NCBI GenBank assembly: GCA_910587445.1
Contig: CAJULE010000001.1
Span: 99,748 to 163,747 of the forward strand
From: an uncultured Christensenellaceae bacterium
Lineage (GTDB): Bacteria > Bacillota > Clostridia > Christensenellales > Pumilibacteraceae
Direction of reading: 5' to 3'
DNA length: 64,000 bases
The notes below the pieces were generated by a model. That model saw nothing but the letters and a program-made list of their open reading frames with translations. It had not been told where the DNA came from and searched no databases. Of the stretch, positions 12,383 to 42,052 are shown piece by piece. Both the position numbers and the translations under genes were made by a program. Within the stretch, counting starts at the first letter, position 1; every line of letters begins with the position of its first letter.

Positions 12383-14370
12383 ATGAAAAAGGCAATTTAC
12401 TCATTATGTGCGCTATGTATGGCGCTTGCAATCGTACTTATTCCCGTGAGTACTCTTGACGCTTTCGCTCTTAACGCGGACGCGGAGCCTATGGAAAAAA
12501 AGTGTTCTGCAGCGTGACTCTCGAGGACGACTTTGCGGAAGACGAAGTGGTAGTTACGATAAAAAATAAGGAAAGTTTAAAGTTCAAAAAATATGTAGCA
12601 AGTGATTTCGTCGATATCGGTTGTGAGTCGGTTGATGATTTGTCGATCGCATATGCCGATGATGTGCGAATACATAAGGATCATGCTTGTAAAAAGTCGG
12701 CTTTTGCAAAAGATTATAATCAGCTTCTTAGTCTTAAATTGAAAGAAAAGAGCAAAGAGAATGTTCTCGCGGCAATTAAGGTGCTTGAAAAGCGTGATGA
12801 TGTGCTTTCTGCTGAGCCGAGTTATATTTTGGATTCATTCGATAGTAATGTTGAGGAAAATAACGGGCATGGAATCGAACCAAATAAGGCAATAGGTGGT
12901 GGATTGCCTATAAATCCCGTGTTACCTGTAGTAAAGCCCACAAAGCTTCCTAACGACCCCGGGCGATCTCGGCAGTGGGCAATTGCAAGAATAAAGCTGC
13001 CCGAGGCATGGAACTATACCACGGGTTCGAGTGATGTTGTTGTTGGGGTTATAGACAGCGGTGTTGATTCTACGCATCCCGATTTACAAGGCAAAATCGA
13101 TACGTCGCTTAGCTATGATTTCGTAAATAATACATCTGCTATGCCTGCTACGTCAAGTCTTTTTTATCATGGGACAATGGTTGCGGGAATTATAGCTGCT
13201 CAGACCGACAATGGAGAATGAATTGCAGGCGCAGGGTGGAACGTAAGAATAGCTTCGCTAAGAGTTGGTGACAGCTTGGGTGGAATTAAAACCCCTTATG
13301 TCGTGTCGGCGATAGAATATGCTAGAATAAAAGGGATTCCTATTATCAATCTTAGTCTCGGGGGTAAACAAGACGACAGTAGGCTTCGCAGTGCAATAGA
13401 AAAATATACAGGGGTAATAGTGTGTGCAGCCGGAAATGCCGAAGCGGATAATGATGACAGCAAAAATGCAGTTTATCCGGCGAGTTATAGCTATAGAGAA
13501 AACTTAATATCCGTAGGAGCAAGTGATACAGAGGATAAAAGATTTATAAATGGCGGCACAGGTTCCAATTATGGGAAAACGACAGTAGATTTATTTGCTC
13601 CGGGAGCCAACATATATTCTACGATGATACAAGGGCGTTATCAAGGGTCATGCTCCGGTACGAGTTATTATGAGTCGGACTCCGGGACGTCGTATGCCGC
13701 ACCATATGTTTCGGGTGTTGCCGCATTGTTGCTTTCAAGATTTCCGGAACTTACTGCTGCGGAAATTAAAGACGCTATAAAGAACAATGTCAGTAAAGTG
13801 AGCGCACTCAGTGACCTGTGTGTTTCGGGTGGTAGACTTAATGCCTTAAATGCGCTTATTGGTTTACATTCGGGTCATAGATACGGGCAATCCTATTCAT
13901 TTGTATCGCAAACACAACATGCATCATTCTGCGAATGTGGGGATCATAAACTTGAGCCACATTGGGCATATTCTTCTTCCTTACGTATGTACAACGGACA
14001 TCGATATGCTACTTGTGCGTGCTGTAAATATGAAATAAATATCGATAATAATCCCATAATTGTAATAAGCAATTCAGCTCCCGGAGAGCTTGAACTTATG
14101 GGGCTTAAAGTGGTAGAAAGTCCAAAGCAGCTTGTGCAGGCGCTTTCTCAAAATTTTCGGCAAACAAGTTCTTTGAAAATGGAAGCTGTCCTGTCATATT
14201 ATGATGAAGAGTTTTTTGAGACATATGCAATAGTCCTGTCCGATGATTTTGATATGGAACGTGTCGTAGAGTCTCTGTATTCGAATATAATAGAGTGTAG
14301 AAAATACATTGACAAAGAAGGAAATTTTTGGTATGATACAGACAATAACTATGAGGAGATATATGCATGA
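12383..14370 (+). pseudogene. secreted subtilisin-like (peptidase S8) serine protease, disrupted by a frameshift in an A7 run and an in-frame TGA; C-terminal about 120 aa is a novel tail domain
   Basis: Signal peptide ORF (12383-12510) ends after an A7 run. Adding one A fuses it in frame to the I9 propeptide-like region of the 12502 ORF. The Asp box VVGVIDSGVD and the His box HGTMVAGIIAA are followed directly by TGA (13219-13221) at the position of the conserved Gly of the subtilisin NxxGxG(V/I)AG motif. The same frame continues into ORF 13276-14370 with the Asn (LSLGG) and Ser (GTSYAAPYVSG) boxes. AT-rich relative to its flanks. Confidence 0.7.
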
Positions 14371-14825
14371 AAAAGAGACTGATTCCTATATTGATTGCGC
14401 TTGCATTGTGTATGAGCATAGTTTTTTGTGCTTGCGGTTCGACAAGTGAAACTCCTATATGCGACTATGAAGAGCTGTCTGCGGAAACAAGAACAAAAAT
14501 TGCTCAGGCATATTGCGACTTATATGAGTTAGATGAAAATGAAGAAAAGAACTTTGAGGTCGAGGAGTTTTATACCTCAAGGGAAGGCGTCTATGTATTC
14601 TATACGCATTATGCGGTATTTGCTTTTCTGGCATTACGAAGTGAGAAAATCGGCGGTGTCCGAATCGAGTATCCCGATAGTATAGGATTTAATGTTTATA
14701 TAGAGCAGACCGACGAAATAATCGGACTTGCTAATGCTTATGAACAGGGTTTGGTTACAAAGAAAGATATAAAGCTCATAAACGAAAAGCACAAAAAAGC
14801 GCGTTCGTATCTTTACAAAGATTGA
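14367..14825 (+). CDS. repeat lipoprotein, copy 1 of a duplicated cassette (paralog of 27181-28338)
   Basis: Start inside the stop of the protease ORF (ATGA). Signal + lipobox SIVFCACG. Shares the IxxAYCD(L/I)xY block and one xAYExGxLxxxDI repeat with the 385-aa paralog. Confidence 0.6.
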   Translation: MKKRLIPILIALALCMSIVFCACGSTSETPICDYEELSAETRTKIAQAYCDLYELDENEEKNFEVEEFYTSREGVYVFYTHYAVFAFLALRSEKIGGVRIEYPDSIGFNVYIEQTDEIIGLANAYEQGLVTKKDIKLINEKHKKARSYLYKD

Positions 14826-24510: not shown

Positions 24511-26685
24511 ATGAGCGAAACGGTTTTCGAAAACAGCAAATGGATCTGGGCGGAACAGGTCGATTCTTCCGCAGACGACGTGGTGATATTTCGTCGTCCG
24601 TTTAACGTGGATAAGCCTCCTAAAACGGCTGTCGCAAGAATTGCCGCCGAAAACAGATACTTTCTGTATCTCAACGGAAAAGAGGTCGTTGTCGGAGGAG
24701 GAATGCTTCGCACGGGGCGCTCCGGCAAGGGATTTTACGACGAAATCGATCTGTCCGGGTACATCGAAAAGGGCGAGAACGTCATAAGCGTAATAGCCAT
24801 GTTCTACGGCGCTGCGGACAATAAACTTTCCGCGGGCAAGGCGGGATTGCTTTTCGAGTGTCCGGAACTGTCCGTAAGCTCGGACAGCGGCTTTACGGTC
24901 TATAGGGACAGAGCGTATTCTGCGCACCCCGATTATGCGAAGCCCAAGGCGGCAGGCATAAACATCAAATACGACGCGACTCTCGAGAGTATGCTTACCG
25001 GCTATCAAAAGCCCGAGTTCGTGTCCAATCTGTTTGTCGCCGCGACGGAACTCGGCGAATACGGCGCGGAGCCGTGGGGCGAAGTCGTGAAGCGTCCCGT
25101 ACCCCTCTTTGCCGGCAAGCTTGTGGAGAAGTGCCGCAAAATAGACAAGCGCACGAACGTCCTCATGGGCGACAGGTACGCGGACGAGTACACGCTTACG
25201 CTTCCGCGTGCGATGAACGTATATCCCAGACTTTCGGTCACGGCAAACAGCGGCGACAGGATAGAGGTGAAAAGCGAGCGCTACGAGGTCGGCGGCTGTT
25301 ATGAGGACGAGGGCAAGAGTACGAACGGTTTTCGCTTCGAGTACATCTGCAAAGCCGAATCGCAGACCTTCGAATTTCCGCAGACTCTGTACGGCGAGCG
25401 CCTCATATTCTCGATAACGCCCGGCGTGAAGGTTCAGGCGCTCGGTTATCGGGAAAGCCTGTACGGATCGGTCGATGACGGCGAGCTTCGCACGGACGAC
25501 GAGTTTCTCGGGGCGCTTCAGGAGAAGTGCGCTGACACGCTTGTCGGCTGTATGCGCGAAGGATTCGTCGATACGCCCGAGCGCGGCAACTATGTTTTGC
25601 CTGCGGCGGCTTCCGTGGGCGCCGACGGCGCGTTCTATCTTTTCGAGGACGGCGGAGTCGCGCTTGCCGAAAAGTTTATGGCGGATACTTTGGAGCTTGC
25701 CGAAAACGACATTCTTTATGCGAGCGTCTACGGCGAGCGCAAGGAACTTCCTTCGCAGATGCTGATCGCGCTTTCGGAATTCGGCATTGCGGCGAAATAT
25801 TACGCATACGTCGGGATGAATGAAAAGCTTGCGGCTTTCGTCGTTGCGGGACTTAAATACCTTGCGAAGTGGGAGCAGGGAGAGGACGGCTTTATTGCGC
25901 CTCGTACGCAGGCAAAGTGCGACGATCTTTTCAATTGCGATGAAAAACTCGTGCTGAATATGCTCTACTATTCGGCGCTCAACAACGTCTGCCGACTCAT
26001 GGAAGCGACGGGCGACGATACTCATTCGGGTTTTCTCGACGATAGGGCGCAAAGCCTTAAGGCGGCGTTGGACGCGTGTTACGACGGCATGGGCTATTCG
26101 AGCGTCAAAGGTTTTTACGACGACAGGGCAAACGCGTTCGCCGTGCTCTCGGGTATAGCGGACAATGAAGAATACACGGGACTTACGAGGATTCTCGAGT
26201 CGGTCGCTTGCGCAACTCCTCTGTACGAAGGCTATGTGCTCGAGGCGCTTTGCGTTATGGGCGAAGGAAACATAGCGCTACGCCGCATGAAGAGCCGCTA
26301 TCACGACATGGTCGAAAACGGCAGGTCCACGCTTTCCGAGGACTTTGCGGGACGAGGTGCGAAAAGCTATCTCGGATCGGTCGCTCCGCTGCCTATCATG
26401 TATCGCTATTTCGCGGGCATAAACTTCGACGAGGGGCTCGGCAAAATAGTCATAACTCCCGATCTGCGCTCTCTCGGCGTCATAGATTTCCGTTTGACGC
26501 TTGAAGGCGGAAAACTTTCGGGCAGGTTCGCCAAGGTAAAAGACCGCGTGGAAGTTTTCGTCGATAACTCTACGGGGAAAGAAGTCCTGTTGCTTTTAAA
26601 GAGCGAGTTTATAGGCAAGGACATAGACGGCATGAGCGAAAAGGGCTTTAAGCTTACGAAAGGCAAAAACAAGTTTACGATTTAA
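24511..26685 (+). CDS. glycoside hydrolase, putative alpha-L-rhamnosidase-like (GH78-type, six-hairpin)
   Basis: N-terminal SKWIW...YFLYLNGKEVVVGG block resembles the rhamnosidase N-domain motif. No signal peptide. Family call is tentative. Confidence 0.4.
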   Translation: MSETVFENSKWIWAEQVDSSADDVVIFRRPFNVDKPPKTAVARIAAENRYFLYLNGKEVVVGGGMLRTGRSGKGFYDEIDLSGYIEKGENVISVIAMFYGAADNKLSAGKAGLLFECPELSVSSDSGFTVYRDRAYSAHPDYAKPKAAGINIKYDATLESMLTGYQKPEFVSNLFVAATELGEYGAEPWGEVVKRPVPLFAGKLVEKCRKIDKRTNVLMGDRYADEYTLTLPRAMNVYPRLSVTANSGDRIEVKSERYEVGGCYEDEGKSTNGFRFEYICKAESQTFEFPQTLYGERLIFSITPGVKVQALGYRESLYGSVDDGELRTDDEFLGALQEKCADTLVGCMREGFVDTPERGNYVLPAAASVGADGAFYLFEDGGVALAEKFMADTLELAENDILYASVYGERKELPSQMLIALSEFGIAAKYYAYVGMNEKLAAFVVAGLKYLAKWEQGEDGFIAPRTQAKCDDLFNCDEKLVLNMLYYSALNNVCRLMEATGDDTHSGFLDDRAQSLKAALDACYDGMGYSSVKGFYDDRANAFAVLSGIADNEEYTGLTRILESVACATPLYEGYVLEALCVMGEGNIALRRMKSRYHDMVENGRSTLSEDFAGRGAKSYLGSVAPLPIMYRYFAGINFDEGLGKIVITPDLRSLGVIDFRLTLEGGKLSGRFAKVKDRVEVFVDNSTGKEVLLLLKSEFIGKDIDGMSEKGFKLTKGKNKFTI

Positions 26686-26819: not shown

Positions 26820-26848
26820 TTGACGAGCTCACGAAAGCATGATATAAT
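26820..26848 (+). promoter_or_regulatory. strong sigma-A-like promoter (TTGACG-N17-TGATATAAT, extended -10)
   Basis: TTGACG at 26820-26825, TATAAT at 26843-26848 preceded by TGa. Confidence 0.5.
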
Positions 26849-26902: not shown

Positions 26903-27184
26903 TTGGAGACTATGGGACTGAGAGTAATAGAAAGTCCTACCGAGCTTGCAAATGAAATATGTACTTTGGAAAATGTTTCGGAATACTATCGAATAAATGA
27001 GATATTATCGCATTATGATGAACTGTTTTTTGAAAAGTATAATATTGTAATAGCCGATAATACGGATAAGAGCAATATCATAGATAATTTGCATATGAAT
27101 ACAGTAGAGAATAGTAAAAATATCGGACAAAAAGAAAGTATATTATTCGGCAAAGATTGTGAGTTCGAGGAGGTATATGTATGA
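26903..27184 (+). CDS. small cytoplasmic protein (93 aa) homologous to the C-terminal tail of the S8 protease at 13990-14370; first gene of cassette copy 2
   Basis: MGLRVIESPTELANE...LSHYDELFFEKYNIVIADN... aligns with LMGLKVVESPKQLVQ...LSYYDEEFFETYAIVLSDDF... of the protease tail. RBS GGAGAGTTGGAG. Confidence 0.55.
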   Translation: METMGLRVIESPTELANEICTLENVSEYYRINEILSHYDELFFEKYNIVIADNTDKSNIIDNLHMNTVENSKNIGQKESILFGKDCEFEEVYV

Positions 27185-28338
27185 AAAAGAAAATAATTTC
27201 GTTATTTGTCGTATTGACGTTTTGCATAAGCGTTGTTTTTTGTGCGTGCGGCGGCGCGGGCAATAAGTCGGGTAAAGACGATATACCTTTAACTTCGGAA
27301 GAGATACTAGAGATAAAAAAGGCATATTGCGATATAATGTATAACGGCAGGAAAACAGCCGTAGCGGACGAAATTATCGAGATATTTTCTTATTACGGAA
27401 ATTACGACGGGGCAATCGTAGTCACTGTCGACGGCAAGACGGGGATAAGTTCTTATCGGTCCAACCGTTTCACGGCGATGGGATATGAGTTTGTCGGGAC
27501 GCCGAAATCACTTTTTAAAGTGTATAAAGACGGCGAGATGAAGAGTTTGGATGAGGCGTGCGAAAACGGGTGGCTTAAGGAAGAAGACATAAAAGCCGTT
27601 CATGAAATATATGCCGAGGAATATGCAGTATATTACAAAGACGCTTCGGCAACCGAAGATTACGAAAAGATAAGAGTACAGTTCAACGAACAAATCGGTG
27701 CGGCTTCAAGCGATTGCGATGTTTTTTATACGAGCTTGGGCAGCTACGCTTCTACCGAAGTGCTTTCTCTCGAATCGGAGGATTTTTGGAGAAATTCTCA
27801 TTCCGCGACTTGTAAGGCGGGAGAAGCGACGTTTAATCTTTCGGGAATGACTGAACTTCGGGCGTACAGAGACGGCGTATTGCATACGGTGGAATCCGCT
27901 TATGAAAACGGGTGGCTTACGGCGCAGGATATCGAAAAAGCGCTTGCATTGCATAAAGCCATGTACCCGTATGTGTATATAAGCCGAGAAGAAGCGCCGA
28001 GCGCAGACGAAAAGACCAAAGAGAAAATGGCGCGGGAATACTATGAGAAAAGTTTAAAACTCAATTACGAGAACGTAAAAGCAAGCCAAGTGCAAGCAGA
28101 CGCTTTTTACGGGGAATATTCGGGCGCAAGCGTTTATCATTTTACTACTCCGCTTGCGAGCGTTACTGCGTGCGTAACTTGCATTTTGGGCGGAGTGGTG
28201 TTCGGATTCGGATCGCCCATGCAAGTTCTCGAAGTATATAAAGACGGAAGCTTTTTGAGCTTAGAAGCGGCATACAGAACGGGGTGGCTTTCGGTAAGCG
28301 ATTTGAGAGCGTTGCAGTCTTTGTATTACTTGCGCTGA
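27181..28338 (+). CDS. repeat lipoprotein, copy 2 (385 aa) with three about 35-aa Y[KR]DG...A[YC]ENGWL..DI repeats
   Basis: Start overlaps the previous stop (ATGA). Signal + lipobox SVVFCACG nearly identical to 14367-14825. Repeats at about residues 113-150, 228-265 and 352-385. Confidence 0.65.
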   Translation: MKKKIISLFVVLTFCISVVFCACGGAGNKSGKDDIPLTSEEILEIKKAYCDIMYNGRKTAVADEIIEIFSYYGNYDGAIVVTVDGKTGISSYRSNRFTAMGYEFVGTPKSLFKVYKDGEMKSLDEACENGWLKEEDIKAVHEIYAEEYAVYYKDASATEDYEKIRVQFNEQIGAASSDCDVFYTSLGSYASTEVLSLESEDFWRNSHSATCKAGEATFNLSGMTELRAYRDGVLHTVESAYENGWLTAQDIEKALALHKAMYPYVYISREEAPSADEKTKEKMAREYYEKSLKLNYENVKASQVQADAFYGEYSGASVYHFTTPLASVTACVTCILGGVVFGFGSPMQVLEVYKDGSFLSLEAAYRTGWLSVSDLRALQSLYYLR

Positions 28339-28381
28339 ATCATAGCTCAGTAAGGTTTAAACCGAATAAAGAAAAACTCGT

Positions 28382-28417
28382 ATCCCCTCGAGCGTATCGA
28401 GGGGATATGTGTTTTTG
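28382..28417 (+). terminator. rho-independent terminator
   Basis: atcccctcga gcgt atcgagggga t, then atgtgttttt. Confidence 0.6.
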
Positions 28418-40473: not shown

Positions 40474-40554
40474 AAGCTCGCAATTCGGTTTGCGGGCTTT
40501 TTTTATAGGGATAAAAAGCAAGGAAAGACAGCTATGGCTTTCCTTGCTTTTTTG
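40474..40554 (+). terminator. tandem rho-independent terminators after rplL
   Basis: gctcgcaa ttcggtt tgcgggc followed by TTTTTTT. Then aagcaaggaaag...ctttccttgctt followed by TTTTT. Confidence 0.6.
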
Positions 40555-40609
40555 CTGTGATTTTGCTATACTGTAACTGCGATAAACAGTAATTTAACGG
40601 AGAAAGTCT

Positions 40610-41074
40610 ATGCGGTTTACGGCTTATGAAATGAAAACAGACATAGCAAAGATTGAACGCAATGTCAGCATACATTGTATTCCGTTTGAAGAGCGCTTTT
40701 TTGAAGAATATAAAAAAATGTATAATGAAAGTTTTCGGGAAATGAGAAAGTGTTTAGATATTAAGCCATATAACTTTTTGTCCAACTATGCTCAAATTAA
40801 AGATAAAGCCGATGATATTTTTATTCTCGTAGATAACGGCGGATTAGTGGGTTCCGTTGCCTGTTATGGTAACGAAATAGACGATTTGTTTGTAGGTAAA
40901 CAATTTCAAGGAAAAGGAATCGGTAAACAACTGCTTTTGTGGGGAATGAATTATATGAGGATTAAAAACAATTCATCGATACATTTACACGTTGCGGAAT
41001 GGAACAAAAAAGCCGTAATGCTTTATAGAAGCGTAGGCTTTACTATTGTAAAAACAGAGATAGTCGAAAGATAA
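40610..41074 (+). CDS. GNAT-family N-acetyltransferase (AT-rich gene)
   Basis: Acetyl-CoA-binding motif QFQGKGIGKQLL. 154 aa. Markedly lower GC than its flanks. Confidence 0.8.
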   Translation: MRFTAYEMKTDIAKIERNVSIHCIPFEERFFEEYKKMYNESFREMRKCLDIKPYNFLSNYAQIKDKADDIFILVDNGGLVGSVACYGNEIDDLFVGKQFQGKGIGKQLLLWGMNYMRIKNNSSIHLHVAEWNKKAVMLYRSVGFTIVKTEIVER

Positions 41075-41091
41075 ATTTCAATTTCGCAATA

Positions 41092-41214
41092 CAGGCTCCA
41101 CTTAATAAGGGGAGCTCCGCGAAGCGATGAGGGGATGTGAAATATGTCGGGAAAACAAATCCCCTCAATCACTCGTACCTCGTGACAGCTCCCATTGCTA
41201 AGGGGAGCCTAATG
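41092..41214. mobile_element. MITE-like / palindromic structured element (about 120 bp) with about 24-bp imperfect terminal inverted repeats
   Basis: Left end aggctccacttaataaggggagct. Reverse complement of the right end is aggctccccttagcaatgggagct. Internal 8-bp stem gaggggat...atcccctc. Confidence 0.35.
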
Positions 41215-41243
41215 CAAGAAAATTCAATTTAACGGAGAACACT

Positions 41244-41849
41244 ATGAAATTGGAAATGAAAGCGATGAAGTGGACGCGGAAACCGAAAGATTACAACATC
41301 ACTTCGGATAAGGTCGAAATTATAACGGCGCCGCATACGGATTTATGGCAACGCACTTATTATCATTTCAGAAACGATAATGCGCCCGTTCTGCAAATAT
41401 CCACAGACGAAAAGTATTTTTCGTTTATAGTCAAAACGGAATTCGAGTCGAAAAAACGATTCGATCAATGCGGCGTTGTGATGTATTTGGACGGCGAAAA
41501 TTGGCTGAAAGGCTCTATTGAATACGAAAACGAGCAATTTCAGCATTTGGGCAGCGTGGTGACAAACATGGGTTATTCCGATTGGGCAACAACAGTCATC
41601 GACGCTTCGGTAAAATCAATGTGGTATCGATTCAGCCGCAGGGAAGACGATTATTGTATCGAGTGTTCCGATGACGGAATACATTTTAAGCAAATGCGTA
41701 TTTGCCATATGTGGAATGGGCAGGGAACAATCAGTTTCGGCATTTATGCGTGCAGTCCCGAAGATTCTTCATTTAAGGCGACTTTTACGAATATGCAAAT
41801 TACGGAATGTCAATGGTATGCGCATGACGGACAGTCGCCGGACGATTAA
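41244..41849 (+). CDS. hypothetical protein, possibly DUF1349-like (concanavalin-like fold); AT-rich gene
   Basis: 201 aa, soluble. The DUF1349 family guess is from memory only. Confidence 0.4.
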   Translation: MKLEMKAMKWTRKPKDYNITSDKVEIITAPHTDLWQRTYYHFRNDNAPVLQISTDEKYFSFIVKTEFESKKRFDQCGVVMYLDGENWLKGSIEYENEQFQHLGSVVTNMGYSDWATTVIDASVKSMWYRFSRREDDYCIECSDDGIHFKQMRICHMWNGQGTISFGIYACSPEDSSFKATFTNMQITECQWYAHDGQSPDD

Positions 41850-42052
41850 CGAACGATTAAATTTCGATTTACCTTACTGTAGTTATTCGCAGTCGAAAGG
41901 TCTCGACCGATGTGTCCGTAGGCGTTTTGTCGTCGCTTAAAGTGCAACTTTCTAAAATTCGGCGTTTTAATTTCCCGAACGCGCAATAGCGAAAGCGAGT
42001 TCGCTTCTTTGTGAAAAATAGACGAAACTTTGCCGTTTGGTCCGCTTCGGAA

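Follow-up and report, generated by a model that had tools for sequence, protein, structure and literature searches.

The N-terminal propeptides of subtilases (MEROPS I9, fervidolysin-type N-pro) act as chaperones and as tight-binding inhibitors, and S8 propeptides are classical subtilase binders. A subtilase with a dedicated lipoprotein is also a known kind of system. In Treponema denticola, two lipoproteins of the dentilisin operon (prcB-prcA-prtP), PrcB and PrcA, bind, stabilise and anchor the S8 protease PrtP, and a prtP C-terminal deletion mutant has undetectable PrtP and uncleaved PrcA (strain table, PMC8167434). In Lactococcus, the gene for the S8 proteinase PrtP is paired with the gene for a lipoprotein, PrtM, that is required for protease activity (PMC3307742). 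Here we analyse two loci, copy 1 and copy 2, in a 64,000-nucleotide stretch from an uncultured Christensenellaceae bacterium (assembly GCA_910587445.1, contig CAJULE010000001.1, positions 99,748 to 163,747 of the forward strand; hereafter the window), where an earlier note had described a duplicated cassette of a small domain, fused to an S8 peptidase in one copy, and an overlapping lipoprotein gene. The cassette is the remains of two related subtilase–lipoprotein operons, in both of which the S8 gene has decayed and the lipoprotein gene has not.

The closest parallel is dentilisin: the window loci likewise combine, within a single operon, a subtilisin-family protease and lipoproteins that are restricted to a lineage and belong to no known family, and the window S8 partially matches the NCBIfam PrtP model, below threshold. 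They differ in that the window lipoproteins have no sequence similarity to PrcA or PrcB, the host is no spirochaete with an outer membrane but belongs to a Gram-positive-type clostridial lineage, the protease itself carries no lipoprotein anchor, and a complex is so far only inferred. The pairing of an S8 gene with a lipoprotein gene also recalls PrtP/PrtM, a parallel in logic only: PrtM is a PrsA-family parvulin-type peptidyl-prolyl isomerase, whereas no rotamase domain was found in the window lipoproteins, which at E <= 1 gave only chance-level short matches to Pfam and NCBIfam models. The S8 subfamily described here has an N-terminal propeptide of the subtilase type, copies of which also occur alone or fused to other domains, but the window lipoproteins consist of modules only, and the C-terminal tail of the protease is unrelated to the propeptide. 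The same module, of about 115 aa, is the extracytoplasmic part of some proteins of the BlaR1/MecR1 (M56) and RsgI or extracytoplasmic function (ECF) anti-sigma types, and a domain related to the tail also ends an M56 protein (L036); in contrast, the window proteins are plain lipoproteins without a transmembrane signalling part, and neither window locus has a gene for a sigma factor or a BlaI-type repressor beside it. Neither a type VII secretion mycosin nor a dentilisin PrtP identity from NCBIfam was retained for the protease, the matches being far below threshold.

Two related operons with decayed subtilase genes

Alignment bears out much of the likeness that the earlier note had reported between the loci. 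The small segments at the end of the S8 frames, which we call tails, align without gaps (14098-14367 with 26912-27181; 33% identity, E 7e-20), and the lipoproteins align at 30% identity (14367-14825 with 27181-28338; E 2e-15); each lipoprotein gene starts inside the preceding stop codon (ATGA), and by a profile built for the repeat, the copy-1 lipoprotein has one module and the copy-2 lipoprotein three. The tail does lie outside the subtilisin catalytic domain, and neither it nor either lipoprotein has a Pfam or NCBIfam model. Both loci are indeed AT-rich: the copy-1 operon has a GC content of 0.41 and copy 2 one of 0.43, compared with a background of 0.51 in the rest of the window rather than the 55% first stated. 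The word duplicated says too much: the S8 bodies are only 54% identical and the tails 33%, and the copies are therefore old paralogues of one operon type. The features of both loci are collected in Table 1.

Table 1. Features of the two loci (window coordinates)
Feature	Position	Strand	Remarks
Copy 1, signal-peptide fragment of the S8 gene, 44-aa open reading frame	12383..12517	+	out of frame with the S8 body
Copy 1, A7 run, site of S8 frame loss	12495..12501	+	A8 would restore the frame
Copy 1, S8 subtilase body, pseudogene: propeptide, Peptidase_S8, Cys/His-rich segment, tail	12502..14370	+	
Copy 1, in-frame TGA in place of a conserved subtilase Gly codon (GGA)	13219..13221	+	
Tail 1, 90-aa C-terminal extension of the copy-1 subtilase	14098..14370	+	AlphaFold2 model with predicted local distance difference test score (pLDDT) 74, no fold match
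Lipoprotein 1, 152 aa: signal peptide, lipobox IVFCAC before G, one ~115-aa module (14463-14822)	14367..14825	+	module hidden Markov model (HMM) E 1.6e-27; AlphaFold2 pLDDT 89.8
Copy 2, sigma-70-type promoter TTGACG-17-TATAAT	26820..26848	+	11/12 matches; ~60 nt upstream of the remnant
Copy 2, deletion junction	26867	+	L050:4495 onwards matches from here, inside the intact S8 gene
Tail 2 remnant, 90 aa from ATG 26912 (93 aa from TTG 26903), last codons of the deleted S8 gene	26912..27184	+	
Lipoprotein 2, 385 aa: signal peptide, lipobox, modules 27283-27642, 27643-27984 and 28000-28335	27181..28338	+	three module matches, E 6e-77
Copy 2, intrinsic terminator-like hairpin closing the operon	28379..28409	+	13-pair stem, then a T run

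The S8 gene of copy 1 is dead: its frame shifts behind the signal peptide and is interrupted once more by a nonsense codon. Its frame still matches Pfam PF00082 at E 4e-48, with the Peptidase_S8 domain at about 13030-13797 followed by a Cys/His-rich segment at about 13867-14040, and it retains the catalytic D, H and S and the oxyanion N. The upstream fragment contains MKKAIYSLCALCMALAIVLIPVSTLDAFA, almost the same as the in-frame signal peptides of the homologue P0004 and of a related species (L028), and is separated from the body by the A7 run. We compared the locus with eight same-species contigs, each from an independent assembly. Six of them (L002-L007) cover the A7 run and all six share it, and the TGA at 13219 is found in six of the eight; the other two (L002, L008) have GGA, and L028 has G at this position as well. 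Two contigs (L006, L007) have an additional 2-bp deletion at 13612-13613. Decoding of the TGA as Gly (code 25) or selenocysteine was rejected, as other long open reading frames of the window end normally and sister strains have GGA, and an apparent break in L003 is a run of N and not a true lesion. The lipoprotein gene behind this pseudogene is intact: its GAGGAG Shine-Dalgarno sequence lies in the last codons of the tail (EEIYA), its ATG overlaps the S8 stop, and compared with L028 it is the slowest-evolving part of the locus (0.015 substitutions per site). The 3' end of tail 1 also contains a strong promoter-like sequence, TTGACA-17-TATGAT (14309-14337; 11/12 matches, with a TG), which precedes the start of the lipoprotein-1 gene by about 30 nt; by its consensus match, it might drive lipoprotein 1 apart from the dead S8 gene.

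At copy 2 the S8 gene has been removed by a deletion, and what had been taken for a free-standing 93-aa gene is the 3' end of an S8 gene without its first ~552 codons. The intact allele is preserved in one strain, L050 (SRR22319459), where the 724-aa gene on the upstream side and the 385-aa lipoprotein gene, whose product is identical there, flank the gene for a 656-aa S8 protein (L050:2842-4812) with signal peptide, propeptide, catalytic D/H/N/S, Cys-rich segment and tail. Window 24402-26685 matches L050 373-2657 at 98.4% and window 26867-28600 matches L050 4495-6228 at 99.94%, with 181 nt between these flanks in the window versus 1837 nt in L050. About 1.66 kb net, about the first 552 codons of the S8 gene, has been lost; the promoter, the last ~90 codons and the lipoprotein gene are left. 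A microhomology, ATAAT(T)ACT, can be read by eye in the S8 5' untranslated region and just upstream of the right-hand breakpoint, and the window promoter appears, in a by-eye comparison with L050:2760-2800, to be a diverged counterpart of the S8 promoter there. Among contigs found via the downstream aminotransferase gene, most strains share the window arrangement and L050 alone is intact.

Because of the near identity downstream of the junction, the deletion must be recent, and that a frame of 90 codons is still open afterwards does not indicate a function. The intact protein ends …NPIITLPGSFSVGELETMGLRVIESP…, and the supposed start and ribosome-binding site of the short gene are plain coding sequence there (…VGELETMGL…). 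The remnant has no signal peptide. Its last codons hold the ribosome-binding site of the lipoprotein-2 gene and the ATGA overlap, both of which outlasted the deletion; this matches continued expression of lipoprotein 2, with no function shown for the remnant itself. At neither copy, then, does an uninterrupted frame run from S8 signal peptide to stop codon. A low-coverage contig (1.7x) offers a further variant of the locus: compared with window 27181-27520, L009:396-731 is 98% identical over the tail remnant and the signal peptide of the lipoprotein, whereas the mature lipoprotein that follows is very different and has an in-frame stop. This may be a mosaic or a variable allele. A 471-aa "tail-lipoprotein fusion" in L040 and L053 proved to be a scaffold artefact across a run of N.

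Loss of the protease recurs beyond the window species. In L028 ("uncultured Christensenella sp. MGBC137892", a related species with 95% DNA identity), an extra base keeps the signal peptide in frame and the Gly codon is GGA, and the S8 gene is broken by other lesions, a 4-bp and a 1-bp deletion. In P0004, an orthologue further removed (43% identity), the frame is open and the tail complete, and the catalytic residues are lost (D to Y, H to R, oxyanion N to Y). In another species, L029:7110-7732 (CAMUFJ010000002.1) encodes a P0008-orthologous S8 protein without residues 122-495, the whole catalytic domain; its propeptide and tail remain, as does the beginning of the module-lipoprotein gene behind it, at which the fetched locus ends. 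The intact allele is found in L013. Across these close relatives, at least five separate inactivations of the S8 gene have occurred, by frameshifts, a nonsense codon, deletions and loss of the catalytic site, and the partner has been kept each time.

The conserved pair is a subtilase and a module protein

Which two genes, then, stay together in other genomes? The earlier note had proposed the tail and the lipoprotein. Across genomes a protease-linked gene does keep company with a lipoprotein gene, but the unit is an S8 gene with a gene for a protein of ~115-aa modules, and not a tail with a lipoprotein. A word-based homologue search for free-standing tails returned only P0001, 98% identical, on a metagenome contig probably of the same species, and a genome motif scan returned S8-linked copies only; the same word-based search with the 385-aa lipoprotein found same-species proteins only. 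Neither of the two tail searches thus turned up a free-standing tail outside the window species, and S8 genes of the same subfamily without a tail still adjoined module genes. Since the free-standing tail is the product of a recent deletion and tail-less S8 genes keep their module neighbours, we take the subtilase and the module protein as the conserved pair.

A module gene lies next to the S8 gene in every readable locus of the family except the truncated L015, and pairs on the same strand within one or two genes are found at window copy 1 and in L050, L013, L010, L016, L037, L038, L086, L091 and L120. The module gene is downstream of the S8 gene in L013, where it encodes two modules and overlaps it by ATGA; it is upstream in L016, and upstream of S8 genes that have no tail in L037 and L038. 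The ATGA overlap is seen once more in L015, where the overlapping downstream gene encodes a lipoprotein with a copy of the S8 propeptide and the next lipoprotein gene is cut by the contig end. In L010, identical 134-aa one-module lipoprotein genes (L010:3581-3985 and L010:5835-6239) stand on either side of the P0007 S8 gene, which may be a local duplication or an assembly feature. As a control, we scanned metagenomes for one S8 motif, which gave 116 loci. Three of the four with the propeptide of this subfamily adjoin a gene for a membrane-anchored module protein and the fourth adjoins a gene for a propeptide-like lipoprotein, whereas a module gene is found beside none of the 112 other S8 loci (0/112), nor did the 18 unrelated loci of the genome scan contain one.

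Copies of the S8 propeptide connect the protease to the module in a second way. Stand-alone lipoproteins made of a linker and a propeptide copy are encoded directly beside family S8 genes (L015:1995-2690 and L137:3947-4393), one of which is the catalytically dead P0004. In L038:1576-4860 (GCA_052829005.1, JAZLZZ010000043.1), an ECF sigma factor, an anti-sigma-like protein and an S8 protease are encoded in a row, followed by a second sigma/anti-sigma pair; the anti-sigma-like protein has a transmembrane segment, one module and a close copy of the propeptide of the neighbouring S8 protein. This locus looks like a protease-coupled sigma switch. Four of the top 150 module proteins (P0269, P0130, P0151 and P0260) also carry a propeptide-like domain, in P0269 in the order Peptidase_M56 (BlaR1-type), module, propeptide copy. 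The propeptide of P0007 itself gives a weak match to PF22148.

A widespread module and a partial relative of a surface domain

Both window lipoproteins carry a lipobox on inspection of the sequence, MKKRLIPILIALALCMSIVFCAC followed by G in lipoprotein 1 and MKKKIISLFVVLTFCISVVFCAC followed by G in lipoprotein 2; their homologues have LICGC before T, PFAAC before S and LVLCAC before S. Both also match the module profile (A5) over the whole unit, the elements of which are an N-terminal helix, a YYGxYxG strand and VYxDGxFYxLxEAYExGxLTxxD. An exhaustive profile search with the four window modules recovered 1891 representative clusters at E <= 1e-3. The top 150 proteins mostly have two or three modules, and 83 of these 150 have a lipobox-like N-terminus. 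Some 85% of the 108 module proteins scanned have no Pfam domain; the rest have Peptidase_M56 (5), SLH (5), dockerin (4), RsgI_M (1) and other domains, the four named being typical of the surface or the membrane, and in BlaR1-type M56, RsgI-like and ECF anti-sigma proteins the module is the extracytoplasmic part. A confident AlphaFold2 model of the module from 75 sequences (pLDDT 89.8, predicted template modelling score 0.83) shows an antiparallel sheet of six strands, preceded by a helix at the N-terminus and followed by helices at the C-terminus. The module profile (A1) found no sequence relative in the PDB and Foldseek no significant match. There is a resemblance to the N-terminal dimerisation domain of DsbC/DsbG, a helix on an antiparallel sheet, at low scores and 7-14% identity with nothing significant in Foldseek; the module has extra C-terminal helices (AYExGxLTxxD…), and we do not claim homology. 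Models for I9 propeptides, I42 chagasin, PepSY, BsuPI and SSI in Pfam and NCBIfam had no match among the window proteins.

The tail, a genuine C-terminal extension that only a minority of the subtilases have, is related to the N-terminal half of a widespread clostridial surface domain without a name. Of the nearest S8 homologues, P0004 carries all 90 aa, and P0006, P0007 and P0008 stop after the N-terminal half (I.S..EL..YL…YDExFFExYxLI). A degenerate DNA scan for YD[DE]xFFExY in one genome per species returned 20 loci, which encode S8 tails, many clostridial lipoproteins, dockerin proteins and an M56/BlaR1-like protein; the proteins other than S8 share a domain of ~115 aa that opens with the same elements as the tail. 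Aligned with this domain (A4), the tail gives an hhalign probability of 96.4% and E 1.2e-9 over the N-terminal 48 columns only, a score in which the shared motif was the search criterion for the A4 sequences and only the agreement of the flanking positions is independent. Matches to the A4 HMM span positions 7-52, and the C-terminal strands of the full unit (…SGS…W..v.VpK) are absent from the tail, which is a partial relative rather than a full member. The domain itself has no Pfam entry, and profile A4 found no sequence relative in the PDB. Between the S8 domain and the C-terminal extension lies a Cys/His-rich unit, H.Y……H…C.CG….H……C..C (window 13867-14040; C-termini of P0005-P0045), which occurs in one to four or more repeats across the S8 family, with several in the L137 S8 protein, and has no Pfam model.

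The neighbouring genes of the two loci encode GH3, GLF, glycosyltransferase 28 and aminotransferase domains, besides one gene without a Pfam match, and with such neighbours a ribosomally synthesised and post-translationally modified peptide (lantibiotic LanP/LanI) context was dropped. The 724-aa gene upstream of copy 2 (window 24511-26685) has no Pfam family and is split into 420-aa and 308-aa open reading frames in L051. A third AT-rich stretch of the window (40500-41900, GC 0.34-0.44) has open reading frames of 154 aa (40610-41074) and 201 aa (41244-41849), neither of which matches the tail or module profiles.

Discussion

Taken together, these observations are best explained by decayed subtilase–lipoprotein operons in which the module lipoprotein is the cell-surface partner of its subtilase, a joint reading to which we assign a probability of roughly 0.6. 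We observe directly how the operons are built, that both S8 genes have decayed, that the synteny is specific to the subfamily and that modules are fused to propeptides. The first gene of such an operon encodes a secreted pre-pro-subtilase with a Cys/His-rich segment and a short C-terminal tail, and the second, coupled to it through ATGA, a membrane-anchored lipoprotein with one to three alpha+beta modules. From these observations, and by the parallel with dentilisin, the lipoprotein may be proposed to bind, retain or regulate the exported subtilase at the outer face of the membrane. The tail, where present, would be an accessory extension that may add to the contact between the two.

Several points weigh against this explanation. 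The lipoproteins persist after the loss of the S8 gene, lipoprotein 1 as the best conserved part of its locus, where a pure partner would be expected to become dispensable. The S8 loci that we surveyed are homologues and not fully independent. Indel and nonsense lesions number five in the ~1.7 kb of S8 sequence versus none in the 0.73 kb of tail and lipoprotein, a difference that is not significant alone (P about 0.1). In the fusions of module and propeptide, contact with the protease could be made by the propeptide alone, with the module as a stalk. Finally, modules are found on BlaR1-type M56, RsgI-like, ECF anti-sigma, SLH and dockerin proteins, which speaks for a role of another sort. Because the lipoproteins are intact after S8 loss, they probably also work without a protease encoded in cis.

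The presence of modules on such proteins is an argument for a serious rival, if one that we consider on the whole unlikely, in which the module would serve more generally outside the cell, to sense or bind a wall, glycan or peptide ligand or as a stalk or dimerisation unit. The link to S8 would then reflect shared regulation or signalling rather than a stable complex, with the protease as the output of module-bearing sensors or as a site-1 protease acting on them. That the best fold match of the module is a dimerisation domain and that the lipoproteins survive without the protease agree with such a role; most members of the family, though, are module-only lipoproteins, the association is specific to one S8 subfamily (3/4 vs 0/112), and the reading frames often overlap, which is more typical of physical partners than of loosely co-regulated genes. 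The persistence of the lipoproteins tells against an inhibitor or latency factor that keeps the subtilase inactive at the surface of its producer in the manner of immunity, as such a protein should decay once the protease is gone, and here it stays intact and conserved. We regard an inhibitor as decidedly improbable: translational coupling would suit one-to-one co-production, modules are fused to or stand beside S8-propeptide-like domains, and one member of the module family also has a chagasin I42 inhibitor domain, yet the fold similarity is weak, with none in Foldseek, and many sensors and wall-bound proteins without a protease in their vicinity contain the module.

The same retention after S8 loss counts against a dedicated foldase or maturation factor like PrtM, which we find very unlikely. 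Pairing with a pre-pro-subtilase and a lipid anchor fit the logic of PrtP/PrtM (PMC3307742), and PrcB is needed for detectable PrtP in dentilisin (PMC8167434), but the lipoproteins have no parvulin or rotamase domain and no similarity to known chaperones, and these subtilases carry their own propeptide, the usual intramolecular chaperone. Least supported, and highly improbable in our judgement, is the proposal of the earlier note that the tail protein and the lipoprotein are a self-standing functional pair that is sometimes fused to a peptidase. The same order and ATGA overlap at both loci, a tail frame open at both despite a dead S8 gene, an ATG with an upstream GGAG before both tails, and a separate 90-aa gene called by gene callers in several strains all seem to favour it. 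Against these stand the very recent deletion that set the tail free and turned S8 coding sequence into an apparent ribosome-binding site, the lack of free-standing relatives beyond the window species, the presence of only the N-terminal half of the tail in distant S8 relatives, and the module genes that adjoin S8 genes with no tail at all; moreover, since the remnant has no signal peptide, it cannot meet a lipoprotein that is exported.

For annotation, the loci illustrate that a seemingly novel small gene beside a lipoprotein gene can be the deletion scar of a larger gene, which a strain-level comparison resolves at once. Both the operon type and the two domain families in it are widespread and have yet to be characterised. 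The recurrent loss of the S8 gene with retention of its partner points to strong and recurrent selection on secreted protease activity in the gut. A module of some 1900 clusters that has no Pfam, NCBIfam or PDB relative, is tied to one subtilase subfamily and recurs on BlaR1-like and anti-sigma sensors, in some cases with a decoy propeptide, suggests a so far unstudied form of tethering or sensing of secreted proteases in gut Firmicutes. One may speculate further, though we think it rather unlikely in this specific form, that the module, often together with a decoy propeptide, is the extracellular part of a protease-coupled system for both signalling and tethering in gut Clostridia, in which the S8 protease binds or cleaves module-bearing lipoproteins, ECF/RsgI-type anti-sigma factors and BlaR1-type M56 proteins. 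If so, cells would sense or control their own secreted protease, the window lipoproteins would be stand-alone members that outlive their proteases, and the repeated loss of S8 genes within species would reflect selection on a costly secreted "public good".

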